In this document: one piece after another, positions 6,988-23,143 of the stretch
How positions within the stretch are numbered: the first letter of the stretch is position 1
How the letters are laid out: every line of letters begins with the position of its first letter
Assembly: GCA_964603905.1 (NCBI GenBank)
Contig: CAZRWH010000006.1
Coordinates: 3,224 to 46,755, forward strand
Source of the DNA: an uncultured Candidatus Peribacteria bacterium
GTDB taxonomy: Bacteria; Patescibacteriota; Gracilibacteria; UBA1369; UBA12470
Length of the DNA stretch: 43,532 nucleotides
Direction of reading: 5' to 3'
The notes under the pieces: generated by a model
The model's database searches: none
What the model saw: only the letters and a program-made list of their open reading frames with translations
What the model was told of the DNA's origin: nothing
Translations under genes and position numbers: made by a program

Positions 6988-9549
6988 CTATTCTGGAAGA
7001 GTCTCGTAAATCCCATTTGCACTCAACTCCGACGCAATCTTACGAAGAGAACTAATCTGATCTCTGTCTAATAATGCAGTGTCATGCTCCAATTGATTTA
7101 AAATACCCCTCTCTTCTTCTTTAGACTCAGCCTTGTCCAGCTTCTGCATATAAGCAATTACTTTTTTTATAACTGGAGAATCATGTTCCCACCCATTCCT
7201 CTGATATATCTCCTTTTTAGTCTCTTCAATCAACTCAGGAGCCACCTCCGCAACACGTCGAGCAATCTCGTCTGGACCAATTCCAGCAGAATCTTGCTCA
7301 CCCTCTTCCTCTTCCGCCTCTTCTTTCCAAAAATCACCTTCTCCCCTCAACATAGCACCAGTATCATCAGTCTCTCCTTCCGGCTGAACTTCTACAGCAA
7401 CTTCAACATTGCCATCTGAATCCATGCCAGCTCTATCCATAGTATAAGCAATGTCTTTCAATAAATCCTCGCTACTATCAAGATCAAACTTCACACAACG
7501 TTTTAACTGCTTCCTGTTAAGTTGATCCCCTGTAGAAAACCATACTTCACACCTTTTAGCACGAAGTAGTCCCTTTAGATCCTCAAAATCACACGAATCC
7601 ACGATAACCGTCTGGATACTATCAGGTAAAAAGTCCCAATTCTCGATAGTCCCTTGTATTTTGTGAATCCTCAAATAAAGCAAATTAGGGCATTGCTCAA
7701 CAACTTCCCGAACAACATCTTTATGACAATCTTCAAACACAAGACCGCCTACATTCTCTGCAACAGCAGCAATCTCTTCTATATCCTCTCTGAGTTTAAG
7801 GTGATACTTTAGATCCAGTCCACTGTCCCAAGTAATACCTTCCAACATCAATCTCTCACCCCCTCCAAGAAGCCCAAAGTTACGAAAATCAACACAATCC
7901 TGACCAAGAATTTCAACAAGCTCTTTCGGAATCTCTTTAAGTTCAGGAACTTTCAAAGCCATTGGAAGTGGCAATTTAGCCAAAATACGTTTGATAAGTC
8001 CTGGCTTATTAGGTTGAGTTAAATCTTTACGTCGATTCATCCAATTTCCAAAACGATCTCCGGTAATAATATCCAAAAGAACAGACATCGCACCTTTGAT
8101 TTCCTGAACAGGGTCTCCAGCACCACTAAACTGAGGCGCCGGCACCAAAGTTCTATCCGCTTGTTCAACGGGAACAACATGTTCAACCTCTCCAGAAACA
8201 TGCTCAGCATCAATTACTACAGGGTCAGCAGCAACTTCAGCCAGTTCAGGATCCGGCAAACCGGCAACAATTCTATCCAAAATATCAGGACGACTTGGAG
8301 AAACAGTATTTCTAGGCACAGCCCTTCTTTGAGGTGGCAATTCAAAAACCTGTTCAGCGCGTTCATCCGATTCAGAACCAGATGGATCTACCCTATACAA
8401 TGAAATAGGACTCGGGAACTCATGATCTGAAGCCTCTTCTAGATCACCTTCTGCAGGCGGAAAGAACACAGGTATATCAAACTCAGAGCTTGAAACCTCT
8501 TCTGCATCTTCGGTAGCAGGCCTCGCAGGAGGTGCCAGCACAGGAAACTCAGGCAATTCAACATCAAGTTGCAAAACCGCATTAATATCTCGAATCGCAC
8601 GAGCCGCCCTATAACGAACTTCTCGGGATTCACCTGACTTCTTTTCAGATTCTAGTCGCGCCAATTCTTGAGCTATAGCCTCTTTTGTATCCAAGCTAAG
8701 ACGAACTAGAACACCATAAATTTTACTAATTTTCGCCCTCTCAACACGCTCAATTTCATCCACATCAACTGCCTGACCATCAAGCAAATAAGTATCTTTT
8801 GCGACTCCAACATTAAACCTCAGTTCGCTCACAGCTTTCTCTTGATCAAAATGACTTTGAAGCAATCCATGTTGAAGCAATGTACACGATTGAGCCAATG
8901 CATGCAGCCCCATTTGAACCAAACTATCAGCGGCTGTGCGCTCCTCTTGAGTCATAACAGGGTCAGAACCATCCGACGGATTAACAGCCACATGATTCAT
9001 TAAGTTAAGATGAGCCAAACAATGAACAAGATCCTTAACTTGATCCCCTTTTCTCAATCGAAGAAGGTTCATAAGTAGATCTCGAGCCATTAATTGCGAT
9101 TGATAGAAGTCTTTGTTAGCCAAAACAGCTTTAGAAGCATCATCAGAAGCATTCATGCCCGTTGGCAAACCGTTGCAACCCTCAAACATATCCGCATTTT
9201 CGCGATAAACACTAGTAATAATAGTCATAAGCGCTTTATGAATCAGAGCAGCTTTTCTTTGCATTGGAATATCACGACTAGATTCACGAGCTACTGAAGG
9301 CACCAATGCAAAAGTAGGCATTGCAAACTGCCTTTTCAAGCTCTCATTCGCATCATAAACCTCTCCTCCAATAAGATGCACACCCGCATAAACGCTGCGC
9401 GATTCAGGAGTAGTAGAATCTTTTTCTTCTCGCTCAGCTTTAAAGAAACCCATGTATTCCAGAGCTTCGGCAAGCTCTCGGGTAATAGGGCCTCTTTCAT
9501 CCGTAGATTCAGGACCATTACCACCCATTGTTGAAATGCTTCTAGACAT
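6988..9549 (-). CDS. large hypothetical protein (853 aa) with Pro/acidic spacer and Cys-containing LRR-like region
   Basis: Hydrophilic N-terminus. The Pro/acidic region spans aa ~335-480 and includes SSEFDIP. CPNLLYLRIHKIQGTIENWDFLPDSIQTVIVDSCDFEDLKGLL lies at nt ~7540-7932. Confidence 0.8.
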   Translation of the reverse strand: MSRSISTMGGNGPESTDERGPITRELAEALEYMGFFKAEREEKDSTTPESRSVYAGVHLIGGEVYDANESLKRQFAMPTFALVPSVARESSRDIPMQRKAALIHKALMTIITSVYRENADMFEGCNGLPTGMNASDDASKAVLANKDFYQSQLMARDLLMNLLRLRKGDQVKDLVHCLAHLNLMNHVAVNPSDGSDPVMTQEERTAADSLVQMGLHALAQSCTLLQHGLLQSHFDQEKAVSELRFNVGVAKDTYLLDGQAVDVDEIERVERAKISKIYGVLVRLSLDTKEAIAQELARLESEKKSGESREVRYRAARAIRDINAVLQLDVELPEFPVLAPPARPATEDAEEVSSSEFDIPVFFPPAEGDLEEASDHEFPSPISLYRVDPSGSESDERAEQVFELPPQRRAVPRNTVSPSRPDILDRIVAGLPDPELAEVAADPVVIDAEHVSGEVEHVVPVEQADRTLVPAPQFSGAGDPVQEIKGAMSVLLDIITGDRFGNWMNRRKDLTQPNKPGLIKRILAKLPLPMALKVPELKEIPKELVEILGQDCVDFRNFGLLGGGERLMLEGITWDSGLDLKYHLKLREDIEEIAAVAENVGGLVFEDCHKDVVREVVEQCPNLLYLRIHKIQGTIENWDFLPDSIQTVIVDSCDFEDLKGLLRAKRCEVWFSTGDQLNRKQLKRCVKFDLDSSEDLLKDIAYTMDRAGMDSDGNVEVAVEVQPEGETDDTGAMLRGEGDFWKEEAEEEEGEQDSAGIGPDEIARRVAEVAPELIEETKKEIYQRNGWEHDSPVIKKVIAYMQKLDKAESKEEERGILNQLEHDTALLDRDQISSLRKIASELSANGIYETLPE

Positions 9550-9579
9550 AATTTCAGATTAAAATTAAGAAAGAAGCCG

Positions 9580-9608
9580 ATTCTACACAGAAATCGTGCT
9601 TTTGTCAA
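9580..9608 (-). promoter_or_regulatory. sigma70-type promoter of the 853-aa gene, TTGACA-N17-TAGAAT
   Basis: The reverse complement of 9580-9608 is TTGACAaaagcacgatttctgtgTAGAAT. The -10 box lies 30 nt from the ATG. Confidence 0.65.
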
Positions 9609-9781
9609 GCGTGCCGGATCAAAAAAACACTACAACACCATGAAATTCAAAAAAGTCGCGTTTTGTCCCGGGACATTTCGCGACAATTCACTGTTTTATT
9701 GCATAATCTGCACGTCGAAAAAACACGTCTCGACTAGCGCAAGAGCCGTTTTGCCCTCGGGCAAAACACCATCCCAAAAAC

Positions 9782-9899
9782 CTTAGCTTTTTTTGTTAAG
9801 CGAAAAAGTATCAGCAGTGCTACTATTTTCTCCTGATCGTAAGATCAAGAGAAAGAGTAAGCGATGCCACGCAGGAGCTAAACAAAAAAATCCCCTAAG
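9782..9899. other. copy A of a repeated structured element: a long hairpin enclosing a ~58-nt conserved core
   Basis: Arms TTTTTTTGTTAAGC (9788-9801) and GCTAAACAAAAAAA (9877-9890), plus outer CTTAG/CTAAG. Core 9819-9877 is about 85% identical to 30514-30571. The right arm overlaps the stop codon of the 104-aa gene. Confidence 0.6.
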
Positions 9900-10209
9900 C
9901 AGTACCACTAAGATACAACTCCCTAAAATGCGCAAAAGCTTGAGCAAAAACCTGTTGATAATTTGGAAGATTCTCTCGAATATACTGCTCAACTTGTTCA
10001 GCACTCATGTCATCAGCCTCAATTCTCCCCTGGAAATCAGCTCTTTTATCCTCCGGCAAAGCCTCAAGAACAGAAAGCATCAATTTATCTTCAAGACGAA
10101 TATAAAGGTCTTGAATCATTTGTTCACGTTCAGCTTCAGGAAGCTCTGACATACCTGCCTCAACAAGTAATCCTTCAAGAAATTTCTTAATATTTGGATC
10201 CATTTCCAT
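9895..10209 (-). CDS. small acidic helical hypothetical protein (104 aa)
   Basis: ATG-initiated ORF 56 nt downstream of the giant gene stop, on the same strand. Confidence 0.6.
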   Translation of the reverse strand: MEMDPNIKKFLEGLLVEAGMSELPEAEREQMIQDLYIRLEDKLMLSVLEALPEDKRADFQGRIEADDMSAEQVEQYIRENLPNYQQVFAQAFAHFRELYLSGTA

Positions 10210-10265
10210 ATTTTTTGTGGTTTAAATTCGTTAAGAGTTTAGGTTAAAAAGGAATTAAAGTAAAT

Positions 10266-13200
10266 TTATTCACCTGGGACTTCGTCAGTACTATTTTCCA
10301 TCCATCCAGTAGCACCATCCGGCATACTCAATTCTGCATGATCATGCTCCGGTTCAACACCTTCTACCGGAACCTCGTCAGTTCCAGAAGCAACAGGAGG
10401 TGGCGCCAAATCAGGAGTTTTCACTGGTGGAAGATCTTCAATTCGAGTAGTCCCAACCGGCTCAGGAAGTTCTAAATCATCTTCGGTCACCTCTTCTGGT
10501 TCTGGTTCAGGAAGGTCTAGATCGTCTGCCTCAACCTTTGTCAAAACCTCTTCTTGTTCAGCAACCTCAAGATTTGGAACTTTTCCTTCAAACGCCATTG
10601 CTTGACCATTGCTTGCTATAACACTCTTCAGGTTTGGCCATCTATCACGCAAAGAAATAATGTCACCGTCAGGGACCTGTGTACCTGCGACGTTAAGCTC
10701 TTCAAGCAAAGGACAGTTATAAAGAGAAGTCATATCAACAAGATCTGGCGAATCACTCAGGTCCGCTTTTTTCAATCCAGAACAGTTCCTCAAAGACCCA
10801 ACATCTTTCACTCCAGAAAGATCTATCTCAGAAACATGAGCCGCGGTTTCAACAAAACCTGTAAGATACACACTCAACATTTCCCATTTCATGTTATCTG
10901 TAGCAGTTACTCTATAGGTACCATCTTCCAAAAGCTCTATGTTTTTCATGCCAACAACTTTTTCAATAAGGGAGATTGCACTTTTATCAATTCTAGGATC
11001 TGTCTTTTCTCTTTCAGAAATTGCAAACCCTCCATGATCCTCAATTTGCTCAGGAGTTTTTCCAACACTAGCAAGTGAAGGATTTACCTCCAACATATCT
11101 GTTCTCTCCGTAGCACCAATATCCAAATCGTGAAAATCCGGAACTTCAGGACCTTGCTTCTCAATTTGCAAAGAATTAATGCCAGTAGGATCAGTATCTT
11201 CAAGGACTTCCCAATCAGTGTCGATAACATCATCCATTTCAATTTGAGGAACAGGTCTAGCAGGCAAAAGATTGTATCCTTCTAAAACAGTATCATTAGC
11301 ATGATATTCATCTTTAAATCCAAACCGAACAATATCACTAGTAAAAGCTCCATTATTCTCGACAACAACACGCCTCAACAACGTAAATGTTCTCAAAACC
11401 TCCTTAACAAACTCCTCTTCAGACGCCAACTCTTCTCCTAAATAAACCTCAGTCACATAAGTCATAGATTGAAACAACTCTTTCTGACGAGCACGATACT
11501 CCGTCATAAATGTTTGCATTTGATCTTTATTCCTAAACACAATTCCAAGCTGCGACTCCGCAACCTCAATAATATCTTCGACAGAGTCAGCAATCGAAGC
11601 CGGAATACCATATTTGTCTTCCAAAACTTTGGTGTCAACTGATCCAAACCCATTAACAACCTCTTGTTGCTGTTCAAAGGTTTTACCAGGGTCTGTAACT
11701 TCTTCTTTATCTTGTTTTTCTTCGGGCTCTGGATAAACCTCTGGCGCCTCTTTAGGATCAAAAGTAGACGGATCACCTATCCTATTAATTTCAGGGTTTG
11801 GTGCTTTTTGTTCAGCAACTTCTTCCTCGGCAGGGGTGTCTTCAGTTCCAAGATTAACAGGATCTGGAGCATCAGCAACATCCAAAGGAACAGTTGGTTC
11901 AGACACAATATCAGAAACCGGCTGTGTAGACTCAACAATCGATTCCCCAGAAATACTTTCTGGGTCAATAGTTGGCTCAGAAGGCACCTCATCAGCACCA
12001 CCCAGTTGCGCTTGAAGTTCAGAAACATCAAAAATCGCTGTATCTCCACCATGAGTAGGAGGAGCAGAACCGACACCCAAAGATTGCGACATTGCAGATT
12101 TAGCACCTTCACTACTGCTAGAAGAGTAAGGGATATATCCAGCGAATATTTTTCGCCCACTATCCTCTTCAAACAAATGACCACCCGCCCCATTCAAAAG
12201 CAAAGGATAATCAACACGGAAAACCGCACCTTCAGCCCCCTGAGGAGAAGAAATACCTTCAACCTCAACATCTGAAGCTCCTTTCTCAAACTGTTCAGGC
12301 AAATCACCTTCAAGAGTGTCATACAAAGCAACATGCCTATACTCATATCCTAACTCTGCCGCCATTTTGGTAAACGTTTCAATATAACTATCTCCCTCGA
12401 CAACAGTTCTATTTATCTTGTCAGCCAAAGGTGGAAGCTCATTAGGCATCGCCTCTCTAACTATTTGCATAAATGGAGCAATTTTATATCCAAAAACTCT
12501 CAAAAGATTTCTCTTGAAAGTATTTACAACCTCTTCGGTTTTTTCTGGAGAAATATATCTACCACCACCTACAAATTCACCACTCCTAGAAATATTAAGC
12601 TCTGCTGCAGAATGCTCACGTATTCCTTTTAGTAGCACACTTAAAGCATTCGCTGCCTCACCAGAAAGAGGCATAAGTTCATGACCAGGATCATTACGAT
12701 GCTCAATCACAAAACCAATAAAACTCAACGCTTGTACCATCTCCTCAAAAGCTGCCTCGGCGCCGTTAGTTAATTGCTCAAGAAGCTCACCATAGACCGC
12801 CCAATCAACATATGGATCAAGTCCTTTCTGGCTTTCAACTGCAACAATATTTTTAGAAAGAGTAACCGCCTTATCAATATGAGTAAAATAATCAATAAGA
12901 AACGGCGAATCAATAATAGCCTTCAAAGCTTCTCGAACCTCAACATTAACAACACACGCCTCTAGAACCCCTGCATCATCCGGAAGCAACGACTCACGAA
13001 CATTCTTCGGCAATGTAAATTCATCTCCAGCTCTCTCCGGCATTTCAAGTGCAGTAGCAGACAAATTCAAAACCCAAGAATCATCCTGGTCAGGCTCTCC
13101 ATCAACAAGCTCCATCGGCTCACCGGTAAGAGCCTCATGTTCTCTTACAGCAGCTTCAACAGGCCCAATTTGCACAGGAACAAGCTCTTCAAGCAAAGGC

Positions 13201-16200
13201 TCTTGTTTAACATCTTCAGTAGTTTCTAAAACAGGTTCTTCCGGTTTCTCGGCAAACTCAGGAGCACCATCAAATTCACGCAACACCGGAGGTGGACCTG
13301 GATCGACTTGAGCTGGGTTTTCCGCAGAAACAGACCCTGAAATTGGTTCTAAGTCAAATTCAGAATGTTCTGCCTCATCTGCCACCTGCTCACTGCCATC
13401 TGTTATCTCTTCAACCTCCCCAAACGGCACAATCTTTTTGCCTAAAGGAATAAATTCTGCCCTGCCTGGATAAGGTGACGTTTTTTCTTTATCAATAAGA
13501 TGGAACACTGGACGTGCAACACGAACAATGAGAGGTCTTGCTTCGTACTCTGTATCTACATCCTCGAGAGGAAGCGCAGGAAGCCTCAATTCTCTTATTC
13601 CAATTACTTTCTCATCACGCAATTCATAGTCAAAAGCATCAGCAACATACAAAGGGATATGTTCATATTTCCCATTTAATTTCATAGAAACATTATTAAC
13701 CAAATCCCTAATACCACCAGAGAACTCAGAATGAATATCCTTGTCGTTAACCTTTAAATCCCCACATCTTGCCTCTACTTCCCCAGATAAAACAGGTACC
13801 TCGTTAGGCAAAGCTTCAACTACAAATTGAAGAGATCTGACTATAGGACAAACTACATGATTAAGAAGCATATCCATTTTGTTTCCCATTTGCCTTTGAA
13901 TCGCTTCAGGCCCCGTGCCGAAATTGTATTTAGGCTCAAACAACAAATGCTTTAATCGCAAAGCCTCGGACTCAGAAAAAGACATTTCCTCAAGGTTTTC
14001 ACTAGTAGCAAATTTTCTCAAAACATCAAAACGCAAAAGAGCATTGTAAGCACCTTTATTATAATCTTCCCACATCTCACGATACTCAGGACTAACATCA
14101 GCTTGTTTCAACAATTCATTACTATCTAATACAGCCTGCATCGTACGCTTCTCAAGAGCAGCTAATTCAGGCGAACCAACAAACTCACGATAGAATTCGA
14201 CGACAGGTCCAAAATTCTCAAAAGTATTTTTTACACTAGCAATCACATCCGGATATTCAGAAAGAGGCTTTCTTTCCCCTTCATCTATACCCAACTGCTG
14301 CGCTAAAGAATTAATATCAAAGCTTTGAGTCTCTTCAACCTGCTCACTGTCATCTGTCATCTGTGATCTGTCATCTTCTGCCGCCGTCTCTGCTCCTTGC
14401 TGACTACTGACTACTGACTCTACCGCCGCCCCACTGTCCACTGTCCTCTGTCCACTGTCCTCTGTAACCCTCTCCAACTCCGCCCTAGCCTCAGCTTCAG
14501 CAATACGAATATTCTCCCTCTCTATTGTAGTATCAATCCAATCAACAACTTGATCCCTACCTTCAAGATTCTTTTCTGGAGAACCTTCAAAAATAACTCT
14601 TCTAAGATTTGGAATGTATCTTAACTTATGAGCAATTGTAGTAATATTAAAATCAAAAACTTCGCCAGACAACTTGACCGATTTCAAACGCCTACGGAGC
14701 TCTTCATTCTCATCAATCAAAGCTCTGAACGAATAACTATGCGTAAAAATTGCATAATCGTCCAGGGTCAACTCTATGCCATCTCCCTCTTCTTCTTTTT
14801 CGAACTTCCAGCCCCTGTCACTGATTTCAGAGAGGAGAGTGTCTTCCCCCAAAAACTCCTTAACCTTTTCTTCACCCCTCAAGCTTTCTTTCGCCTTTCC
14901 AGGATAAGTTATCTTCCTCAAATTTTTCGCCCCTCTAAGAGCATCACGAACAACTTCAGGTTTTTCAATAAGAGCAGCAGGCAACATAACCTCATTCAAA
15001 GCCTCAGCAACCTCAGGACGCTTCAACTCTTCCTTAAGAACAGCAAGTTGATCCTCATCACCGATCCAAACATCAATAGCCTTGCCCTCAGCCTGCTCTT
15101 GAATGTTTTCAAACTTACCTTCAAGACTTTTTGCAACAGAAACTACATCGACAGACTCAACATCTTTCTCAGTTGGTTTCTCCACATCGTCCAACTCAGG
15201 ACCAACAGGCCCAGGTCCAACTGGAGGCACACCTCCGTCATCTATATATGGGTCCGTTGAATCTTGTTCATCGTCTAAATCGTCAGAGTCGCCATAAAGG
15301 AATTCATGTAATTTATCGCTAACATCAAAAACCTCCACCCATCTTCCATCCTTCCTAAATCCAATCCTCTGTAAATTAACCGCCTTTTTAAGAACCTCTT
15401 TCAATCTTGGTAAATCCGTAAACTCTTCATCAAGGGAAATATACCCCAGTACATTTGCAACATCAGGGTCATTCAATTCCTCCTCCAGCAAGTCAATTTG
15501 AGACTCATAAGCTCCAAGTATCGCAATATAATCACCAGGCTCATTATCCACAATCATAGCCCCCTGAAACTTGCCCGAAAGTCTATTTTTTATAGCCAGT
15601 TTTTTCTCGTGAAAAAGATCCTCCTCAGAATCAACCGGAGGAGACCCACCAAGAACTATAACTACAGGGTTCAAAAATCTTTCAACAGCCTCCCTATCTT
15701 CATAATATTCCTTATTAGGCAAATACAAACCTTCTAAATTCTTTGCTTTTTTTAGTATTCTTATAAGCTTTTGTTTCTGCTCAAAATCAAACTCGTCCTT
15801 AATCCCAATTTGATACAATACCTTAACAACATCAGGGTCATTAAGCTCTTCATCTAAAATATCAAGCTGGTCTGGACCTAAATTCATATAAATCATATTT
15901 TTTTCTCGGTCTGTAGGATGACCGACCATCATAGCCCCATCAAACTTTTTCGAAAACCTCATTCTTATAGCCTGACAATCGTCGTAAGGAAGACCAGACT
16001 CAATAGCAGGATCTTCAATCTCCCCAATCGGAGCTACTTTGAGATCAGATGGTTGTTCCGCATCTGCTCCTTGCTCTCTGCTCTCTGCCATCTCTTCCAC
16101 CGCCCCACTGTCCACTGTCCCCTGTTCACTACCCACTGTCCCCCCCGAAGGCCCAACAGGCTCACTTGCATCAGCAGGTCCATCAATCGGCTCCAAGTTA

Positions 16201-19200
16201 AATTCGGACACCTCTTCTGACGCTTCCGCCGCCTCACTGTCATCTGTCATCTGTTCTCTGTCATCTGCTTCCGCCTCATCTGCCGCCCCACTGCCCACTG
16301 TTCTCTGTCCACTGTCCACTGCCCTCCTCGAAGGCCCAACAGGCTCACTTGCATCAGCAGGCCCAGAAGTCGGTTCTAAATTAATTTCAGATACCTCTTC
16401 CGACGCTTCCACATCACTGTCATCTGTCATCTGTTCACTGCCATCTACTGACTCCCCGCTTTCAGTCGCACTGTCATCTTCTGCCGCCTCTTCTGCCGCC
16501 CCACTGTCATCTGTCCCCTGTTCACTATCCACTATCCCCCCAGACGGCCCAACAGGCTCACCGCCATCACCAGGTCCATCAATCGGATCTAAACCAAAGT
16601 CATCTTTCGGCAAATCCACACCTCCCCAGTCCCATTCAGTCCAAGGAGTTGGACCAACAGTAGGCTCAGACAATTCATACGCAGCCTCCATATCTATAGG
16701 TTTTCCGTCAGGACCAAGAATGTTTCCATACCTATCAACATCAGGAAGCTGAGAACGCTCTCCATCACGTTGCGCTTTCTCAAGAGCAACCGGACTATAA
16801 GCAACTATAGGAGGAGCAATGAAAGCATCATGAGTACCCTCTTTTTCAATTAAATAAGAAGCTTGAGGACAATCAGCAGGTTCCGTTGGAACATTAAACA
16901 AATGCTGTGGCTGACCATCTTCCCAGTCGGCGATATAATCTCCAGGATTTACAACATCGTCACTGCCAGGGATAACAAGTTTATCAAGACTTCCATCTCC
17001 TTTTATCATCGCAAGTGAACTCAACATATTATCAGGCCCACGTTGAGCACACATTATGTATTCTCCAAGGAACTTCGGCTTAGCACCAGAAGTGCCCCAA
17101 AGAAGTTTTCCAACATCACTACTGAATGTAGCCTCTCCACTAGAATCAATCGTAAACGGTAGATGACGAACAACACCACTACCATCTTTCACAGCAGCAT
17201 ATAGAGCAATTTCACCTTTATTAAAGGCAGCTGCAACATCAAGTCCAGGGCCACCAACAGTTTGAGTAGGTTGACCTGCACCTTGTTTCAGCATCTCTTT
17301 GATACTCAAAACCACATTACCACTAGGATCAACGCCATCAGTTCCTCCGAACCATAGTCGTTGTTCTTGAACAAGCTCAACACCTTCACCAGAAACATCA
17401 GGAGTTCCATTGTGCCAGTGATCTCCAAGTTTTTCTTCTACAAATCCAAGGCCGCTCCATTGAGAAGGAGTCATACTTCCAGTAGATACTGTAGTCAGTG
17501 TTGGAACAGTTGTGTATCCGCTACCGGTAGTAGCAACTGTAATACCTTGCGATCTCAAATAAGTTTCAGCATTGCTAGAGAAAACACCCGGACTGTCATA
17601 CCAATAAGAGTCAGGTGAAACATGCCCCACTGGAATAAGTCCACGTCCTTCTAAATAAGTAATCAAAGACTCAGCATCCGCAACATAACTTCCTGCAAGA
17701 ATTCCGTTATTAACAATCGAACAGTTATCAATCAACCATTGTTGAGTAACAGGACCTGGATCAGGTGCATCAGACGGCATTTGAATAAGAACAGGCCTTC
17801 CATCCACCATAACCGTTTTATCAATAATCGGTCCTGTATAAACATCAACCTCAGTACACCCTCCATAACCAATCGGATCACCAACATCAAAACCTTCAGC
17901 TGTAAGATAATCCAGAGAAGGCTGAGTCAAAAGACCGTTATTTCCATAAACAATCCTGCTCGGATCAAGACCATTATCAACAGCAAATTGATTGATCGCA
18001 TTAACCGATCCAACATTAACCGAGACATCTTGTCCAAAAGGACCAAACATCATATTTCCAAGCTTACTAACTCCAAAGAAAGCGCTACTAGTCACACCTC
18101 CGAAAAGCGCACCGATCGAAGCAGCTTTTGCGTTTTCTTTGAACTTAAGCCATTTAAAATCTTTTCTTTTACCTGTAATCATCGCCTCAAGATCTTCACG
18201 AATCGTATCAAGCTTACCAACAAGATCAGCATCAACGTTTCGATCACCAGCATTTTGCTCTAACCAATCACGTCCACGACGAGCTGCAGCAAGAAGAGCT
18301 GTTCTATCACGCTCGACATGTTTGGCGTCGCTGAACGAAATCAAATCGATCCTTCCTCCACCTCTCTCAGGCCTCTCTTCAAAACTCATAGTATTTCTAA
18401 TCTCAATCTCAGCAACCATTCGTACAACAGCCTCGTAATCATTACTTTCGATAGCGTTCTCCATCGAACTAAGAAGCGCAACCGCACTCTCCTTCTCCGA
18501 AGTAACTTCAGAAAGTTTTTTCTGCCAAGTTCCATCTGGAGCTTGAACATAATATCCAAGAGCTTCACGTCTGTTTTGTTGAGCCTCTTGCATAATGACA
18601 GCACGATCTCTGTGCTTACCAGCAAGCAAACCTCCAGCGATAATACCACCAGCAGCGGCAGCAATTGCAGGAGCAGCAGCAGGCGCTACCAAAAGACCAA
18701 GCGCACCACCGATTGCAGCACGACCAGCCATACTAGAACCAACGTTATAAAGTCCGTTCATAACACCATACATACCGATAGAAACTGCTGTCGGCGACAT
18801 AGCCCATTTCAAAGGAGGATATTTCGCACCCCACTTTTGAATTCTAGAAACAGCCTTGTCCGCCCAAGTCCTATCCTCCGCAGACGAGTGAACATCAACA
18901 TTCATCGCCTTTCCGATTTTTAGAGTTAATCTAAAATTATCTAAATCAATATTTGCAACACCTCGCACATGCTTCAGGCGAAGATCTTTCATTCTTTCAG
19001 CAACATCTGTCGCCAAAGTTTCATCACCTTCAGGATCTCCAATATGTTCTCTACGAATCTCATTAATCATTCGAGTCGCACGCCTTTTGAAATCCTCATC
19101 AGTAACAGTTCCAACAAGATACTGCCTAGCAAGATCATCAAGTTGTTCCATATGCATAGTTCCTTCTAGCTCAGCAATCATCTCGTCTGGTGTAACATCA

Positions 19201-21770
19201 CCGGTATTAAACCTATTCAATATCGCATTAACCTCAGCTTCATGAGAAGCGAGATCACCTGCCTCAGCACCGCTCATTGCAGTTTTGAAAAAGTCAGGAT
19301 CTTCTTTTAGCTTCTCTAAATATTCAGCCTCGTACTTATCTACATAACCTTGTCTCGCAATACCACGACCATAACCCTTCACAAAGTGACCAATCTTCTT
19401 GAAGAAAGTCGCTTCTTTACGGTCTTTGTTAATCTCATTAAGTTCTCTTTCGTATCTCTCTTCAGCTAAACGACGAGCGATCTTTTTGAACTTTTCTTCA
19501 ACGTCAACAACAGAGATATCAAGCCCCTCCATAGTTGGTCCCTCAGCAAAAATTACTCTAGGAACTTTTGGACTGTCGTCTACTCCATCTCCTTCTTCAA
19601 TGTAAAGCAAATACTTGTAAAGTGCTCCCCAATCTTTGAATCCTGATTGGGTAAGCAATTTATAAATCCCATAAAGCATCGACAGTTTATTCACATCAAC
19701 ACCCATCTCAGGATGCCCAGAATAAAAAGTGTGTAAATCAGCGAAATCATACTGACCAAAATGCCTAAAGTTTTGACATAAAGTTTTAAGAACAGAATGC
19801 ATCTCGTTTTTAAATGCAGAAGTGCCAAACGCTGTCTGCAAATGATTAGGAAACTTGTTGGCGTTTCCCTCCAAAATCGCAATAACATCTTGGTAATTCC
19901 CAAGGTCAACATCAAGGTAAGCTTTTGCATCCGGACCTATAGTCTCACTGCCTTCAATCTCAACCCATCCACCTTCAGTCTCCTTCAAATTCCAAACTTT
20001 CGGCTGCTTATCTCTCTCTTGATAATGAATCAAAACTGCAAGAACCTTAGCCATATCAGCCTCAATGAAAGTATTCGGAGCAAACATCATTGCTCTTCGG
20101 TACAACGTTTTCATTTCTGGGTCATCACCTCCGCGTTCTTGAATCGCTTTAATCAAATCCCCAATCAAATTGTGCCTAGCTTCAGGATTATTCCTTTGAT
20201 CCTCTTGCAAAAGAGCGTCTATCACGCTATTAACCCCATCAACAACTTTTGGATATTTAATTTCAAAATCGTTCAAACTTATCGCCCCTTCACTTTCGTT
20301 AGAATGAATTTGATAACGACCTTTCCCAGGAGAAATAGTGTTCAAAATCATTCCAGAAATCTTCATTTCAATCCTCTCTCGAATCGCCGGTTTAACCCTA
20401 ACAGCTCCAGCAAAAATCTTAAGATCATTGTCATACTCCGCAAGAGCTTCAGGCATGTTTTCATTAGGACGAGCACCTCCCATTAGCTCATCAAAAAGCT
20501 CACGAGCAATTTTCATCCGACCTTCTCTGTGAGCTTGTTCATCAGATATTTCACCTTCAACTCCTTCACGTCCTTTCGCAAGAATTTGCTCAGGAGTCAG
20601 ATTCGCAATTTTCTCAGCTAACGGCTGCCTAAACATTTCATCAGCAGCACGTTCAAGTTTATTCGCATTCTCTTTACGCGCCACACGTTCAGCCATGTTA
20701 TCAAGATGAGCCTTATAATCAGCTCTATCTTTTTCAATAAGTTCAAGCGCATCCAAAGCTACGGGATCGTTCTTATCAAAGATATAAAAAGGCTCCTCCT
20801 CTCCACCAAACCCCATTCGATCATCATCCCAATAATATTTGGCATCAGCCCCTTCCCCAACCACAATAACATGATTCCATCGAGGCAAATCAGCACCTCC
20901 AGCAAGTTCAAATTGAGTAACAGATTCTATTTTCACTTTCTCGAATAACTCTTTCAAATCATCCTTGTTTTTTTCGCTAAGCTTATCTTCAATTTTGCTA
21001 AATCGACTGTGCAGAACTCTAAGCAAGTATGTCAATTGTTCAGAAGCATCGTTTGGCGATTTAAAGTTCAATTTTTCATACAAATCCGCATACTTTTCTT
21101 TCCCAGCCACAACACCAGCCACAAACTCGTTCAACATCTTTTGATCTCCTTGAACACGAGTTTCAAAACTTTGCCCAAGACGTTCAAGGCGTTTCTCATT
21201 CACATTTTCAATCAAATCAGGAGTTGGGATTGACGCTGGCTCCGGTGTAGGCTCCGCTACAGGCTCTATCATAGGCTCCGTATCACTTTCCTCATCCTCA
21301 ACAGCATCCATATCCACACCCAAATAATCAGCTGCTTCTTCTACAAATTTAACAAAAGGAGACAATGCAGCACCACCTAAGTTAACAAACTCAGTGCTGG
21401 TAAGTCCTTCTGAAACACCCTTTTGATAACCCGACTCCAAAAACCCTTGCATCGATGGACAAAGCTCATACCCTACAACAACAGCACGATGCTCTTTTAA
21501 CCCCTCAGGGAACTGAATATCCTTCCCTTCTTGCTTTGCTTGCCCCCAAACAGGAACGAATTCAGTTAATTCAGTCTTTTGTTCAACAAGCGGGCGCAAC
21601 TTAGCGTAATACTGCATCAACAGTTCAATATCCTTCGCGTCTGCAGCTTCGATTTTGGAAGGTTCAGAATTATCAGCAGTGGTGAATTTTTGAACGATCT
21701 GCTTAAGCCGCCCTATCACTTCGTGGAATTTGGGCGCCTCTCTTCGTTCTGGTGTGTTTTGTGGTGCCAT
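10266..21770 (-). CDS. giant mosaic protein (3,834 aa) with a central glycine-zipper hydrophobic region, repeated modules and a C-terminal LRR-like domain
   Basis: Uninterrupted 11,505-nt ORF with an ATG start. AAIGGALGLLVAPAAAPAIAAAAGGIIAGGLLAG lies at nt ~18615-18818. Tandem modules lie at nt 14532-15962. The LRR-like segment EIDLSGVKDVGSLRNCSGLKKADLSDSPDLVDMTSLYNCPLLEELNVAG lies at nt ~10611-10853. Confidence 0.85.
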   Translation of the reverse strand: MAPQNTPERREAPKFHEVIGRLKQIVQKFTTADNSEPSKIEAADAKDIELLMQYYAKLRPLVEQKTELTEFVPVWGQAKQEGKDIQFPEGLKEHRAVVVGYELCPSMQGFLESGYQKGVSEGLTSTEFVNLGGAALSPFVKFVEEAADYLGVDMDAVEDEESDTEPMIEPVAEPTPEPASIPTPDLIENVNEKRLERLGQSFETRVQGDQKMLNEFVAGVVAGKEKYADLYEKLNFKSPNDASEQLTYLLRVLHSRFSKIEDKLSEKNKDDLKELFEKVKIESVTQFELAGGADLPRWNHVIVVGEGADAKYYWDDDRMGFGGEEEPFYIFDKNDPVALDALELIEKDRADYKAHLDNMAERVARKENANKLERAADEMFRQPLAEKIANLTPEQILAKGREGVEGEISDEQAHREGRMKIARELFDELMGGARPNENMPEALAEYDNDLKIFAGAVRVKPAIRERIEMKISGMILNTISPGKGRYQIHSNESEGAISLNDFEIKYPKVVDGVNSVIDALLQEDQRNNPEARHNLIGDLIKAIQERGGDDPEMKTLYRRAMMFAPNTFIEADMAKVLAVLIHYQERDKQPKVWNLKETEGGWVEIEGSETIGPDAKAYLDVDLGNYQDVIAILEGNANKFPNHLQTAFGTSAFKNEMHSVLKTLCQNFRHFGQYDFADLHTFYSGHPEMGVDVNKLSMLYGIYKLLTQSGFKDWGALYKYLLYIEEGDGVDDSPKVPRVIFAEGPTMEGLDISVVDVEEKFKKIARRLAEERYERELNEINKDRKEATFFKKIGHFVKGYGRGIARQGYVDKYEAEYLEKLKEDPDFFKTAMSGAEAGDLASHEAEVNAILNRFNTGDVTPDEMIAELEGTMHMEQLDDLARQYLVGTVTDEDFKRRATRMINEIRREHIGDPEGDETLATDVAERMKDLRLKHVRGVANIDLDNFRLTLKIGKAMNVDVHSSAEDRTWADKAVSRIQKWGAKYPPLKWAMSPTAVSIGMYGVMNGLYNVGSSMAGRAAIGGALGLLVAPAAAPAIAAAAGGIIAGGLLAGKHRDRAVIMQEAQQNRREALGYYVQAPDGTWQKKLSEVTSEKESAVALLSSMENAIESNDYEAVVRMVAEIEIRNTMSFEERPERGGGRIDLISFSDAKHVERDRTALLAAARRGRDWLEQNAGDRNVDADLVGKLDTIREDLEAMITGKRKDFKWLKFKENAKAASIGALFGGVTSSAFFGVSKLGNMMFGPFGQDVSVNVGSVNAINQFAVDNGLDPSRIVYGNNGLLTQPSLDYLTAEGFDVGDPIGYGGCTEVDVYTGPIIDKTVMVDGRPVLIQMPSDAPDPGPVTQQWLIDNCSIVNNGILAGSYVADAESLITYLEGRGLIPVGHVSPDSYWYDSPGVFSSNAETYLRSQGITVATTGSGYTTVPTLTTVSTGSMTPSQWSGLGFVEEKLGDHWHNGTPDVSGEGVELVQEQRLWFGGTDGVDPSGNVVLSIKEMLKQGAGQPTQTVGGPGLDVAAAFNKGEIALYAAVKDGSGVVRHLPFTIDSSGEATFSSDVGKLLWGTSGAKPKFLGEYIMCAQRGPDNMLSSLAMIKGDGSLDKLVIPGSDDVVNPGDYIADWEDGQPQHLFNVPTEPADCPQASYLIEKEGTHDAFIAPPIVAYSPVALEKAQRDGERSQLPDVDRYGNILGPDGKPIDMEAAYELSEPTVGPTPWTEWDWGGVDLPKDDFGLDPIDGPGDGGEPVGPSGGIVDSEQGTDDSGAAEEAAEDDSATESGESVDGSEQMTDDSDVEASEEVSEINLEPTSGPADASEPVGPSRRAVDSGQRTVGSGAADEAEADDREQMTDDSEAAEASEEVSEFNLEPIDGPADASEPVGPSGGTVGSEQGTVDSGAVEEMAESREQGADAEQPSDLKVAPIGEIEDPAIESGLPYDDCQAIRMRFSKKFDGAMMVGHPTDREKNMIYMNLGPDQLDILDEELNDPDVVKVLYQIGIKDEFDFEQKQKLIRILKKAKNLEGLYLPNKEYYEDREAVERFLNPVVIVLGGSPPVDSEEDLFHEKKLAIKNRLSGKFQGAMIVDNEPGDYIAILGAYESQIDLLEEELNDPDVANVLGYISLDEEFTDLPRLKEVLKKAVNLQRIGFRKDGRWVEVFDVSDKLHEFLYGDSDDLDDEQDSTDPYIDDGGVPPVGPGPVGPELDDVEKPTEKDVESVDVVSVAKSLEGKFENIQEQAEGKAIDVWIGDEDQLAVLKEELKRPEVAEALNEVMLPAALIEKPEVVRDALRGAKNLRKITYPGKAKESLRGEEKVKEFLGEDTLLSEISDRGWKFEKEEEGDGIELTLDDYAIFTHSYSFRALIDENEELRRRLKSVKLSGEVFDFNITTIAHKLRYIPNLRRVIFEGSPEKNLEGRDQVVDWIDTTIERENIRIAEAEARAELERVTEDSGQRTVDSGAAVESVVSSQQGAETAAEDDRSQMTDDSEQVEETQSFDINSLAQQLGIDEGERKPLSEYPDVIASVKNTFENFGPVVEFYREFVGSPELAALEKRTMQAVLDSNELLKQADVSPEYREMWEDYNKGAYNALLRFDVLRKFATSENLEEMSFSESEALRLKHLLFEPKYNFGTGPEAIQRQMGNKMDMLLNHVVCPIVRSLQFVVEALPNEVPVLSGEVEARCGDLKVNDKDIHSEFSGGIRDLVNNVSMKLNGKYEHIPLYVADAFDYELRDEKVIGIRELRLPALPLEDVDTEYEARPLIVRVARPVFHLIDKEKTSPYPGRAEFIPLGKKIVPFGEVEEITDGSEQVADEAEHSEFDLEPISGSVSAENPAQVDPGPPPVLREFDGAPEFAEKPEEPVLETTEDVKQEPLLEELVPVQIGPVEAAVREHEALTGEPMELVDGEPDQDDSWVLNLSATALEMPERAGDEFTLPKNVRESLLPDDAGVLEACVVNVEVREALKAIIDSPFLIDYFTHIDKAVTLSKNIVAVESQKGLDPYVDWAVYGELLEQLTNGAEAAFEEMVQALSFIGFVIEHRNDPGHELMPLSGEAANALSVLLKGIREHSAAELNISRSGEFVGGGRYISPEKTEEVVNTFKRNLLRVFGYKIAPFMQIVREAMPNELPPLADKINRTVVEGDSYIETFTKMAAELGYEYRHVALYDTLEGDLPEQFEKGASDVEVEGISSPQGAEGAVFRVDYPLLLNGAGGHLFEEDSGRKIFAGYIPYSSSSSEGAKSAMSQSLGVGSAPPTHGGDTAIFDVSELQAQLGGADEVPSEPTIDPESISGESIVESTQPVSDIVSEPTVPLDVADAPDPVNLGTEDTPAEEEVAEQKAPNPEINRIGDPSTFDPKEAPEVYPEPEEKQDKEEVTDPGKTFEQQQEVVNGFGSVDTKVLEDKYGIPASIADSVEDIIEVAESQLGIVFRNKDQMQTFMTEYRARQKELFQSMTYVTEVYLGEELASEEEFVKEVLRTFTLLRRVVVENNGAFTSDIVRFGFKDEYHANDTVLEGYNLLPARPVPQIEMDDVIDTDWEVLEDTDPTGINSLQIEKQGPEVPDFHDLDIGATERTDMLEVNPSLASVGKTPEQIEDHGGFAISEREKTDPRIDKSAISLIEKVVGMKNIELLEDGTYRVTATDNMKWEMLSVYLTGFVETAAHVSEIDLSGVKDVGSLRNCSGLKKADLSDSPDLVDMTSLYNCPLLEELNVAGTQVPDGDIISLRDRWPNLKSVIASNGQAMAFEGKVPNLEVAEQEEVLTKVEADDLDLPEPEPEEVTEDDLELPEPVGTTRIEDLPPVKTPDLAPPPVASGTDEVPVEGVEPEHDHAELSMPDGATGWMENSTDEVPGE

Positions 21771-21811: not shown

Positions 21812-22030
21812 TTAATTAACAAAAGCCATCGCCCGTTGTTCGACATAAAGCGAGTTAAGAACAGGAGAATCCCCTGCAAACATCGCGAGCATATTAACCT
21901 CGTCTTCCTCCGTCTTGCATACGCTAAAAAACATCATCGCCGCATGGACATCTCGCCAGCTAATATCACCAGCTTGCATAGCCTTTCCAAAGGCCTGCTT
22001 AATCTTCTGCGATAGAGGTGTGTTTTTCAT
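21812..22030 (-). CDS. small hypothetical protein (72 aa) immediately upstream of the giant gene
   Basis: ATG start 28 nt downstream of a consensus -10 box. Its stop is 41 nt before the giant gene ATG. Confidence 0.55.
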   Translation of the reverse strand: MKNTPLSQKIKQAFGKAMQAGDISWRDVHAAMMFFSVCKTEEDEVNMLAMFAGDSPVLNSLYVEQRAMAFVN

Positions 22031-22058: not shown

Positions 22059-22087
22059 ATTATACCAGAAAAACGCCTCTTGATCAA
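22059..22087 (-). promoter_or_regulatory. sigma70-type promoter of the 72-aa / giant gene unit, TTGATC-N17-TGgTATAAT
   Basis: The reverse complement of 22059-22087 is TTGATCaagaggcgtttttctggTATAAT. Confidence 0.65.
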
Positions 22088-22128: not shown

Positions 22129-22163
22129 CACTGTCCACTATCCACTAATCACCAACCACCATC
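22129..22163. repeat. heptamer array CACTGTC CACTATC CACTAAT CACCAAC CACCATC
   Basis: Five phase-locked units spanning the stop codon (22145-22147) and the last 5 codons of the 332-aa gene. Confidence 0.8.
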
Positions 22164-23143
22164 TCCACCCCGCAAACATCAACAATGCGCTTTGCAAACT
22201 TCTCTTTTTCTTGAGCGAGATACTCAGATCTAAGCTCTATCTCAATATCATTTTTCTTGCCATCCAAAACCTTGCACCAATCATAAACACCAAGCATCAT
22301 CCTCTCCATCTGCTCATCGGTAACCTCAAAATATTCTTCAAAAACCGACTGCAGAGCATTTCTAACATGCTGTTCAAAAGCTACAGTACGCGGGTTTTCT
22401 CTCAAAAGTTCATCATGCCAAAGAACCAAAATGTCCAACATGGCTCTTTCAAACTTAGGCTTAACAGCCGCAAGAATTTCAGCTTCTTCCAAATCAACAA
22501 CGTGAGCGTCAGCACCTCTTGCCATTAGCTCTGATGCTTTTTTCAGAAAGTGACTAAAAGCTTTACGCTTCTCAAAGAACCCAGCATCATTCTTTAATCT
22601 ACGAGCAATATCATTTCTCACTCGCGTCGAAGCCAAAGACCTAGCGGTCATGGCACCAAAAATTCGATCCATCATTTTCAAGTCAGACAATCTCTCAGAA
22701 CCAGACCATTTATGCAGTCTCTTCAAAACCTCGTCTGCAAAACCAATTTTATCACTACGAGCAGCTACTTTATCGCCCACCTCAAGTTCAACATCAACAT
22801 TCTCAGACAAATTACTCACTCCAATCACCTCAAGATCACCAGACCCACCAGCGCGTCTCAAAGCCTGCAAAAGCTTCTCCTCTGTCTCAGAAAAATAAAG
22901 AGACATTGTAATATTTGGAGTCCCAGCTTCATATTGTCTTTTTTTATCATAAAACAGCTCCATAAACGCTCTAATCCCCTCAAGGTCCCAAGGCACTGCA
23001 ACATCAAGCCTCAAACGAAGAATCACCTCAGATGCAACCTCATAAAAGTCACTCTGCAAATACCGTGTCTCCATATCCTGTGGCTCAGAAATAGCCGAAT
23101 CGGAAAGCTCATCAATGTCAGGTGCAAAAGTTGGAGTGTTCAT
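22145..23143 (-). CDS. hypothetical cytoplasmic protein (332 aa)
   Basis: ATG-initiated ORF. No signal peptide and no recognisable motif. Confidence 0.7.
   Translation of the reverse strand: MNTPTFAPDIDELSDSAISEPQDMETRYLQSDFYEVASEVILRLRLDVAVPWDLEGIRAFMELFYDKKRQYEAGTPNITMSLYFSETEEKLLQALRRAGGSGDLEVIGVSNLSENVDVELEVGDKVAARSDKIGFADEVLKRLHKWSGSERLSDLKMMDRIFGAMTARSLASTRVRNDIARRLKNDAGFFEKRKAFSHFLKKASELMARGADAHVVDLEEAEILAAVKPKFERAMLDILVLWHDELLRENPRTVAFEQHVRNALQSVFEEYFEVTDEQMERMMLGVYDWCKVLDGKKNDIEIELRSEYLAQEKEKFAKRIVDVCGVEMVVGD

Follow-up and report, generated by a model that had tools for sequence, protein, structure and literature searches.

The window, by which we mean the whole 43,532-nucleotide stretch of contig CAZRWH010000006.1 that was analysed, contains an 11.5-kb gene whose product exceeds in size all other known members of its family, an undescribed and unnamed group of membrane proteins from Peregrinibacteria-type CPR bacteria. 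What appeared as an isolated giant ORF becomes a defined unit: a membrane core of 950 aa without a known fold, a small partner, and hypervariable ends that resemble exchangeable payloads. CPR bacteria depend on host cells, and large "hypothetical" proteins abound in their genomes; to our knowledge, almost none of the molecules at the CPR–host interface has been described. Should the C-terminal parts of these proteins prove to lie at the cell surface, the family would be a leading candidate for recognising hosts or scavenging nutrients in Peregrinibacteria; otherwise, it would represent a cytoplasmic membrane scaffold of a new kind. In both cases it offers a well-defined object for complex-structure prediction, metaproteomics and cryo-ET.

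The giant gene lies on the reverse strand at 10266..21770, with an ATG start and its stop codon at 10266–10268, and specifies 3,834 aa. It is a genuine ORF of the same genome as the rest of the window. That it is one uninterrupted, ATG-initiated frame, as the first-pass annotation had stated, is borne out by the absence of internal stops in 3,834 codons, compared to 67–542 stops in the remaining five frames over this interval. Every segment uses codons in the same, window-typical way: the RSCU of four successive segments of the ORF correlates with that of the other window genes at r = 0.64–0.75, and an out-of-frame control gives r of about 0. It is very improbable that the ORF is an assembly artefact (a multi-gene chimera or a product of repeat collapse) or an open run of pseudogene-like sequence. 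Such an origin would fit with the finding of the exact protein on one contig only, and the C-terminal 2,100 aa have no relatives to confirm continuity. Against it stand, in addition to the reading frame and the codon usage, the DNA repeats within the gene, which are diverged (the 183-nt tandem repeat has 82–83% identity) and thus unlike collapsed assembly repeats. Furthermore, the acidic linker peptide is present on both sides of the putative joins, and layout and synteny are the same in relatives of 3,207 aa and at least 2,502 aa. As the homology to the 3,207-aa relative is collinear across aa 187–1740, frameshifts are excluded within this interval.

The family was delineated by an exhaustive HMMER search of 1.84 billion representative proteins, which yielded 24 relatives of the giant (phmmer E = 2e-220 to 4e-6), and by pattern scans that added 18 loci, 13 from GTDB and 5 from JGI metagenomes. 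Scans with patterns taken from a single protein gave no match in genome, metagenome or viral contigs. The 13 GTDB loci all come from Peregrinibacteria, Peribacteria, Gracilibacteria or Patescibacteria MAGs; the JGI loci carry no organism assignment, so that the taxonomic statement covers the named loci. An HMM of the core, 918 positions long, matches every full-length member from end to end. In the giant, aa 709–1676 correspond to HMM positions 6–916, a match that is partly by construction since the giant is among the 19 sequences from which the HMM was built; the phmmer result is independent of this. The relatives are 989–3,207 aa in length. Identity to the giant is 38–48% over aa 187–1740 in the closest clade (L016/L020, L017, which is P0002, L018/L019 and P0003) and about 25–31% over aa 709–1676 in the main clade. 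The nearest known counterparts are hypothetical proteins of Peregrinibacteria and Gracilibacteria MAGs (for example NCBI MFA6528102.1, which is P0002), encoded beside PF18908 (DUF5663) genes. These share with the giant the homologous core of about 950 aa, the same three membrane segments, and the gene order of the window, namely small ORF, giant and DUF5663. They differ from it in that the 2,158-aa C-terminal extension of the giant has no detectable counterpart in any relative. The earlier view that no segment except the LRR-like part resembles a nameable family is superseded, as the middle third of the protein is a conserved family that happens to be unnamed.

The core is preceded by a hydrophilic, acidic N-terminal extension (aa 1–708; 19647..21770, reverse strand, as are all features of the cassette), whose conservation starts at about aa 187 and is confined to the closest clade (27–57% identity). 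The core itself can be divided into five parts. The first is a helical pre-membrane domain (aa 709–991; 18798..19646), predicted to be cytoplasmic, with the motifs VDVEEK..KIARRLAEER and LDLDNF..L.IG.A.NVDVH. It is the most conserved region of the family, with 63–65% identity to L016. The first-pass annotation had described aa 1–985 as lacking a signal peptide and any recognisable motif; this stands as regards signal peptides and the databases searched, but it overlooked that aa 709–991 are the best-conserved part of the family. The second part (aa 992–1052; 18615..18797) is a membrane hairpin made of TM1 and a Gly/Ala-rich TM2, with R1017, a conserved Arg, and an AP..P kink between the two helices and small-xxx-small zipper patterns along its whole length. 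The third part, roughly 160 aa long, is a helical domain in the TM2–TM3 interval (aa 1053–1215; 18126..18614), which is K/R-rich at both flanks, has the motifs NRREALGY and IDLI.F...VER.R, and is modelled with higher confidence than any other part (pLDDT 80–97). The fourth part is the third membrane helix, TM3 (aa 1216–1238; 18057..18125; AASIGALFGGVTSSAFFGV...). The fifth is a Gly/Thr/Trp-rich, mixed alpha/beta domain of 430 aa (aa 1239–1676; 16743..18056), predicted to be extracytoplasmic, which contains the motif HWHNGT...DG..H and ends in the family motif PPIV...P.ALE.

The hydrophobic stretches noted at first reading hold up, at aa about 992–1052 (Kyte-Doolittle peak 1.97) and 1216–1238 (1.45). 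These are the only ones in the giant and both are kept in all relatives; no family member has a further hydrophobic segment downstream. The N-terminus of the giant is not hydrophobic and a signal peptide is absent. The Pfam glycine-zipper models (Gly-zipper_Omp, YMGG and Rick_17kDa_Anti) do not match the giant, in which the zipper character is confined to the small-xxx-small pattern.

Profile and structure searches returned no significant match to a characterised family. For the whole giant, there is no Pfam match at E <= 1 and nothing significant in NCBIfam, PHROGs or PADLOC; for the core, the same is true of these libraries and of PDB and Foldseek. The AF2 model of the core is of moderate quality (pLDDT 68.5, pTM 0.48), and its top Foldseek matches in PDB and BFVD are to tape measure proteins, minor tail proteins and AhlB/SmhB, all insignificant (best E = 0.055 for viral and 0.74 for PDB targets; TM-score <0.1). 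Phage tape measure proteins and alpha-helical pore-forming or translocator proteins do resemble the giant in being long and helical with a Gly/Ala-rich hydrophobic hairpin in mid-chain. Identity as a phage tape measure protein was rejected given that there is no PHROG match, that the Foldseek matches are insignificant, and that the neighbours are chromosomal (PBP2, MurJ and an M16 peptidase). An RTX/MARTX toxin was likewise set aside, there being one isolated GGxGxD match instead of a tandem array, and no HemolysinCabind match; an ABC exporter is encoded 9 kb from the giant, outside the conserved cassette. Defence-system, phage and toxin readings in general were rejected for lack of matches and because of the chromosomal context. 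A PG_binding_1-like reading of the short repeats in the domain after TM3 was dropped, as neither Pfam nor a PDB sequence search supports it.

The gene that accompanies the giant most faithfully is located 56 nt downstream on the same strand (9895..10209). Its product, a helical protein of 104 aa with a net charge of -12, matches PF18908 (DUF5663) at E = 2.5e-13. In the window, and likewise in 19 of the 22 other loci, a same-strand DUF5663 gene adjoins the family gene; these loci include those of the four most distant members, which range from 37 to 64% GC. Two of the three exceptions are loci that end inside the gene. Directly upstream of the giant is a small helical ORF of 72 aa (21812..22030, reverse strand), the product of which matches the HMM called fam2 at E = 3e-6 and shares 30–41% identity with the products of the correspondingly placed ORFs in L016–L020. 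A fam2 gene is kept directly upstream in the main clade and in the closest clade. Both small proteins are soluble and cytoplasmic in character. Beyond these two to three cassette genes, the neighbours are housekeeping or ordinary surface-protein genes. Upstream of the small ORF, a promoter-like site (22059..22087, reverse strand; TTGATC-17-TATAAT with an extended TG), identified by match to the consensus only, could possibly mark the start of a three-gene unit. A literature search found no paper on DUF5663, and this orphan Pfam family now gains a genomic context as the partner of the giant family.

How the giant is arranged in the membrane can be approached from the charges that flank its helices. 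Across 19 members, the mean number of K+R residues is 3.3 before TM1, 5.2 after TM2, 5.0 before TM3 and 1.0 after TM3, and these positive-inside statistics favour an N-in, C-out orientation. In distant members, the second hydrophobic segment is reduced to a single TM of 20–24 aa, so that A + B + TM3 make three passes. We tentatively prefer, at somewhat under an even chance, the reading in which the giant is a cytoplasmic-membrane protein, N-in/C-out and partnered by DUF5663, that uses its C-terminal part as a host-contact surface. The protein would sit in the cell's own cytoplasmic membrane, anchored by the Gly/Ala-rich TM1–TM2 hairpin and by TM3, with its first 991 aa and the 160-aa TM2–TM3 domain facing the cytoplasm. 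Here, the DUF5663 protein would bind the conserved cytoplasmic domains as an obligate partner, either as a chaperone or as a regulatory subunit, and the small upstream protein would probably bind them too. The conserved 430-aa alpha/beta domain would be positioned just outside the membrane. From it, an acidic low-complexity stalk would bear the lineage-specific C-terminal part of 2,100 aa outwards, where its repeated alpha/beta modules and short LRR-like segment may form a binding or host-contact surface. In this picture the ORF, the family with its conserved core, the membrane segments, the cassette and the variable ends are established by the data, and the topology, the binding of the partners and the role in host contact are inferred.

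The topology proposed by the first-pass annotation, a cytoplasmic head and an external C-terminal portion, agrees with the charge statistics and with three further features of the family. First, in most members the core gives way immediately to a low-complexity "stalk" rich in Pro/Thr or in Ser/Gly/Asp. Second, the domain predicted to lie outside has diverged more quickly than those predicted to lie inside. Third, at L009 and L011, payload proteins adjacent to the cassette have N-termini that resemble peptidoglycan (PG)-binding sequences. The content of the variable ends fits that topology less well. The N- and C-terminal extensions are hypervariable across the family, and a 350-aa domain shared by P0002 and the protein of L016 (45% identity, E = 3.6e-84) precedes the core in the former and follows it in the latter, which is awkward if the two ends occupy different compartments. 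The C-terminal extensions of relatives include a genuine HAD hydrolase domain, a metallophosphoesterase-like domain (E = 0.0017, below the Pfam gathering cutoff) and weak GT-A/GT2-like domains (E about 1e-3 in Pfam and 0.29 in PDB), enzyme types that are usually cytosolic. In addition, the same payload domains are found as separate ORFs with neither signal peptide nor TM helix.

These observations would suit a cytoplasm-facing membrane scaffold, held at the inner face of the membrane by its hydrophobic segments, which would cross it an even number of times or form re-entrant helices. Both large ends, with enzyme-like or binding domains, would then act inside the cell, perhaps in envelope biogenesis, division or signalling, and DUF5663 would be a cytoplasmic subunit. 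The lack of a signal peptide anywhere and the soluble character of both small partners point the same way. We regard this arrangement as rather unlikely, since three hydrophobic segments together with the charge asymmetry around TM3 (1.0 on the C-terminal versus 5.0 on the N-terminal flank) fit three passes with the C-terminus out, the single TM of the distant members gives the same count, and the PT-rich or SGD-rich stalks, together with partner proteins that have PG-binding-like features, point to the wall.

The preferred reading, with the C-terminal part outside, assigns the binding role to a region that is peculiar to the giant, and the 2,158 aa of its C-terminal extension have no detectable relatives. 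This region begins with a tail found in the closest clade only (PWTEWDWG), after which come acidic tandem repeats (together aa 1677–1917; 16020..16742) that may serve as a "stalk" or linker; the acidic peptide is found again at aa 2438–2482 and 2787–2819. Next come modules M1–M4 (aa 1922–2420; 14511..16007), then two units of about 300 aa (aa 2493–3216; 12123..14294) and module M5 (aa 3378–3497; 11280..11639). Four tandem modules of about 100 aa and a fifth had been described; three tandem modules of about 115 aa are clear (M1–M3; aa 1922–2040, 2047–2165 and 2199–2315), and the fourth and fifth are marginal (i-E 0.007 and 0.016). M5 adopts a confident alpha/beta fold in the model (pLDDT 80–92). 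The module profile of M1–M5 had no match in PDB, nor did the model of M5 with the LRR region have a significant structural match there by Foldseek. The two 300-aa units had been called a duplication, for which a 62-aa match (E = 0.003) is the sole support; their mutual similarity is only weak, and no relatives were found for either.

The LRR-like segment noticed earlier (aa 3596–3732; 10575..10985) comprises about three repeats of 22–25 aa. For the giant alone, these fall below threshold (Anp32, E = 0.089; LRR_4, E = 0.02, 15.6 bits versus a cutoff of 27). Relatives in the closest clade have internalin-type LRRs at the equivalent position. A three-sequence profile made from the giant and two of these relatives matches the LRRs of InlA and InlB at E = 1e-23 to 1e-12 (InlA, 1.6e-23), and a control demonstrated that the InlA match is driven by the relatives. 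Like the internalins of Listeria, the giant may have leucine-rich repeats, in a short run of 22–25-residue units near its distal end, and a cell-surface binding role is presumed for both. Unlike them, the giant has no signal peptide, LPxTG motif or GW anchor, internalin cap, or Ig-like inter-repeat domain, and it is anchored via TM helices in mid-chain. Given its nearly constant DUF5663 neighbour and its swappable end domains, the family is a good candidate for a host-contact function, which we consider plausible.

The same hypervariability of the ends can be read in another way, in which the giant is a delivered polymorphic effector. The core would be a translocation or membrane-insertion module, and DUF5663 a chaperone that shields its helices in the producer; after export, the protein would insert into a host membrane and its variable ends (LRR, HAD, phosphoesterase and GT-like) would act in the host. 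Possible analogues are the translocators of type III secretion, type VI secretion effectors with TM helices and the chlamydial Inc proteins. A small, acidic, helical partner gene adjacent almost everywhere, the missing signal peptide, shuffled ends carrying effector-type domains, and payload-like ORFs without signal peptides beside the cassette are all in keeping with delivery. Polymorphic toxin and effector systems likewise combine a conserved core with hypervariable, shuffled ends and an adjacent small gene. In contrast to those systems, no toxin domain or toxin family match, no RHS, LXG or RTX element and no secretion system was found for the giant, nor does the neighbourhood of the cassette hold a conserved secretion apparatus. 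DUF5663 is highly conserved across the family loci, so it does not behave like an immunity gene, which would change along with the C-terminus; nor does any downstream gene vary in that way. We accordingly consider delivery as an effector quite improbable.

In a further reading, the core and DUF5663, perhaps with the small upstream protein, would constitute a lineage-specific platform of Peregrinibacteria-type episymbionts that presents or delivers swappable payloads (LRR, HAD, phosphoesterase, glycosyltransferase-like and novel modules) to hosts. This would amount to a membrane-embedded, chaperone-assisted, polymorphic interface without homology to known secretion or adhesin families, and we hold it to be unlikely.

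By sequence similarity, the giant 3,834-aa protein is not an orphan: it adds a new, extreme member to a family that public data list only as unnamed hypothetical proteins. No significant match to it was found in Pfam, NCBIfam, PHROGs or PADLOC. An exhaustive HMMER search with its aa 1-1200 against 1.84 billion representatives returned 25 proteins at E <= 1e-3, the giant included, and with these 24 relatives the first-pass statement that nothing but an LRR-like part resembles any family falls. The relative P0002 (2,503 aa; ORF 8030-15537 of locus L017) is 44% identical to the giant over aa 171-1188, and a main group of proteins of ~1,600-2,600 aa shows ~31% identity across aa 700-1195. Scanning GTDB species genomes for patterns from the main-group alignment gave 13 loci, each in a MAG that bears the name Candidatus Peregrinibacteria, Peribacteria, Gracilibacteria or "Patescibacteria group". 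In JGI metagenomes, a closest-clade alignment picked up five loci; the product of one is 3,207 aa long and shares 48% identity with the giant across the latter's aa 187-1740. Every family member with a source name is annotated "hypothetical protein", and the representative clusters examined hold 1-2 members each. Two metagenome loci, L018 (9204-15837) and L019 (9197-15817), are near-identical; in L018, the homologue of the giant is broken into three overlapping ORFs, the result either of frameshifts introduced during assembly or of decay of that copy.

The giant gene (10266..21770, minus strand) begins with ATG and has no internal stop, and each of the other five frames contains 67-542 stops across the same stretch. 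Codon usage (RSCU) in four successive segments, the N-extension, the core and two halves of the C-extension, correlates with that of the pooled other window genes at r = 0.64-0.75, and a frame-shifted control gave ~0. The single long ORF of the first-pass annotation is thus correct, coordinates included. That it is an assembly artefact is very improbable. The protein has a single record, an NCBI entry on a contig of 58 kb, and identical copies of two of its neighbours lie on short Logan contigs from run SRR8146440. Repeat collapse is unlikely because the internal DNA repeats have diverged: a 183-nt tandem repeat is 82-83% identical, and the short repeats of the acidic linker are 61-82% identical at the DNA level.

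The family is defined by its core, a region of ~950 aa. Here, a 918-position core HMM is matched end to end in every full-length member, covering giant aa 709-1676. The core begins with a helical domain (motifs VDVEEK..KIARRLAEER and LDLDNF..L.IG.A.NVDVH). Next is the hydrophobic cluster, made up of hydrophobic segment A (NP.T...GYGL.N), a conserved Arg and segment B, which is rich in Gly/Ala and carries an AP..P kink. The chain then runs through the basic juxtamembrane motif KAQKERR.ALGY into ~160 aa of helical domain, after which a basic stretch (F..FKRWEN.K) precedes a third hydrophobic helix (TM3) and a mixed alpha/beta domain of ~430 aa ending in PPIV...P..LE(YG). Among the three most distant members, segment B is reduced to 20-24 residues, as long as one transmembrane helix, so the hydrophobic cluster is better interpreted as a pair of helices (A and B) than as three. 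No further hydrophobic segment follows TM3 in any family member. Kyte-Doolittle analysis of the giant matched the two hydrophobic zones noted earlier, and just those (aa ~1010-1052, peak 1.97; aa 1216-1235, peak 1.45), and likewise detected no N-terminal signal sequence.

Conservation within the core is uneven. Identity peaks at aa 721-960 (63-65% to the L016 protein) and at aa 1021-1080 (60-62% to all three closest relatives compared), the post-TM3 domain is less conserved (27-58% to L016, down to 13% to L019), and identity to the closest relatives is noise beyond aa ~1740. An AF2 model of giant aa 748-1680, built on an alignment of 22 relatives, has a mean pLDDT of 68.5 and a pTM of 0.48 and is best in the helical domain between the membrane segments (pLDDT 80-97). 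Relatives of the core were not detectable in Pfam, NCBIfam or PDB, nor by Foldseek, where the core model matched nothing significantly (best E 0.74 for PDB; 0.055 for BFVD, at a TM-score of 0.07). The best hit of the family profile to PDB sequences, yeast SNF5 at E = 0.0022, lies in a variable region and was taken as spurious.

The core gene is part of a conserved cassette. The DUF5663 gene (9895-10209, minus strand; PF18908, E = 2.5e-13) lies 56 nt downstream of the giant and encodes a helical protein of 104 aa with a net charge of -12. As judged with the DUF5663 HMM, such a gene is directly adjacent and co-oriented in the window and in 19/22 other family loci; of the remaining three loci, two end inside the giant gene. 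It also adjoins the four most distant members (upstream in three, downstream in one), whose loci range from 37 to 64% GC, and loci L009 and L011 carry it twice, one copy after each of two consecutive large genes. This link appears to be undescribed so far; the term DUF5663 was absent from the searchable papers, which do not amount to a full literature check. Directly upstream of the giant, in a conserved position, is a small helical ORF (21812-22030, minus strand), which is matched by an HMM of main-group homologues at E = 3e-6 and is 30-41% identical within the closest clade. A good sigma-70-like site precedes this ORF, and the next large gene downstream (6988-9549) has a separate promoter-like site. 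An antisense ORF over DUF5663 (9793-10149, plus strand), 38% identical in L018/L019, was rejected as gene evidence, being a by-product of sense-gene conservation.

Outside the core, the proteins diverge. N-extensions range from 0 to ~1,200 aa and C-extensions from 0 (P0017, 989 aa) to 2,158 aa in the giant, whose C-extension has no detectable similarity to that of any relative, including the one 48% identical in the core. Of the four tandem modules plus a fifth described previously, three of ~115 aa are clear (aa 1922-2040, 2047-2165 and 2199-2315; BLAST E = 1e-7 to 1e-12); the fourth and fifth, scored against an HMM of the first three, are marginal (i-E 0.007 and 0.016). The fifth was confidently modelled as a small alpha/beta fold (pLDDT 80-92) without structural match, and the module profile had no match in PDB. 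For the reported duplication of a ~300-aa unit, the support is a single 62-aa match (E = 0.003). The same acidic peptide (..SGQRTVDSGAA..EQMTDDSE..) recurs as a linker at aa 1724-1896, 2438-2482 and 2787-2819 (window ~16083-16601, 14325-14459 and 13314-13412, minus strand), which suggests that the C-extension grew by internal duplication of linker-plus-module cassettes.

The reported LRR-like domain stands only as putative. Alone, this segment reaches no more than LRR_4 (E = 0.02), and it is poorly modelled; searched against PDB sequences, the giant matched nothing but an Anp32 LRR, weakly (E = 0.089, aa 3639-3725). A profile combining it with the LRR segments of the L016 protein and P0002 matched Listeria internalins (E = 1.6e-23 to 1e-12). 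In a control, comparing the giant's segment with those of the two relatives gave no significant similarity (E = 0.33), so the internalin-type LRRs belong to the relatives.

The relatives also carry other payload domains. The L016 C-extension contains a genuine HAD hydrolase domain (PF00702, E = 1e-14), L014 a metallophosphoesterase-like domain (E = 0.0017, below the Pfam gathering cutoff), and P0005, P0006, P0013 and P0022 a domain with weak GT-A/GT2 similarity; coiled-coil or Pro-rich tails occur as well. A ~350-aa domain without Pfam match (HATSY...SFYRSNS...ISWYGK...YEYSSQ) has been shuffled from one side of the membrane core to the other in two close relatives: P0002 has it before the core (aa 296-644), the L016 protein after it (ORF 2973-12596; aa ~2743-3076), and the copies are 45% identical (E = 3.6e-84). 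Payload domains are fused to the core in some genomes and are separate ORFs without signal peptide in others, where they immediately follow the core gene or DUF5663. Such ORFs lie at L005 (2909-5617), L015 (3233-4459), L009 (5649-8837) and L011 (5751-8081 and 11168-12217); those of L005 and L015 start within a few bases of the end of the core gene and also lack a TM helix. Several begin with a PG_binding_1-like segment, among them the proteins of L009 and L011 that are encoded beside the cassette and bear the GT-A-like payload domain (matches to 5tv7 at E = 5e-4 and to 4lpq at E = 6e-3 and 0.03).

We tentatively favor a model in which three helices fix the giant in the membrane of the cell that makes it. 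DUF5663, and perhaps the small upstream protein, would bind its conserved cytoplasmic domains, another conserved domain would lie beside the membrane on the outer side, and an acidic stalk would bear a lineage-specific distal part, the repeated modules and the short LRR-like end, as a putative binding or host-contact surface. The cytoplasmic head and external C-terminal part proposed at first pass are favored by mean K+R counts in 19 members (3.3 before TM1, 1.5 in the short TM1-TM2 loop, 5.2 after TM2, 5.0 before TM3 and 1.0 after it). They are also favored by the faster evolution of the predicted outer domain, by the PG_binding_1-like starts of the L009/L011 payload neighbours, and by the PT-rich, P-rich or (GDTS)n-type spacers that follow the core in most members, which we take to resemble extended extracellular linkers. 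Against this topology are the occurrence of the ~350-aa domain on both sides of the core, the typically cytosolic nature of HAD, phosphoesterase-like and GT-like domains, and the L005/L015 payload ORFs that lack a signal peptide or TM helix; a membrane scaffold facing the cytoplasm, to which these observations point, is the less likely reading. Less probable still is a delivered effector, assisted by a chaperone and inserting into host membranes; no conserved secretion apparatus was found around the family loci. The giant is similar in kind to membrane-anchored, modular surface or polymorphic proteins. Among the many giant hypothetical proteins of CPR bacteria, the family is a concrete, conserved and testable unit, relevant to CPR biology.

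Past the two or three cassette genes, neighbourhoods vary by locus, with housekeeping genes (oxidoreductase subunits, QueG) or ordinary surface proteins; in the closest clade, a DUF3352 protein and an upstream lipoprotein are also syntenic. The window itself contains bacterial chromosomal genes (M16 peptidase, PBP2 transpeptidase, DUF3352 protein, ABC exporter, C39-like peptidase, MurJ, SLH protein and tRNA-Thr) and many acidic ORFs without family assignment. The ABC exporter (ABC_membrane + ABC_tran; 30579-32288, minus strand), 72% identical to an ORF at the L017 edge, and the C39-like peptidase (35549-36319, plus strand) are 9-14 kb from the giant, outside the conserved cassette. Large acidic ORFs without family match or signal peptide are found at 1432-4020, 6988-9549 and 22145-23143 (minus strand) and at 27733-28812, 28824-30320 and 36735-37757 (plus strand). 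For an 853-aa protein among them, a weakly similar ORF is the second one downstream of the L016 giant, and ORF 1432-4020 is preceded by a small helical ORF (4037-4363, minus strand; 108 aa), echoing the small-gene/large-gene pattern. The 422-aa product of 26361-27629 (plus strand) has a signal peptide, six predicted TM helices and a glutaredoxin-like domain that scores below the cutoff (TIGR02196, E = 7.5e-5), and it may serve thiol redox in the envelope; its counterparts in L017-L019 show 61-68% identity, which places it within the wider synteny. Paralogous secreted or lipoprotein-like genes without family occur as a tandem pair (41198-41791 and 41914-42522, plus strand) and as a second pair (32295-34196 and 37767-39437, plus strand).
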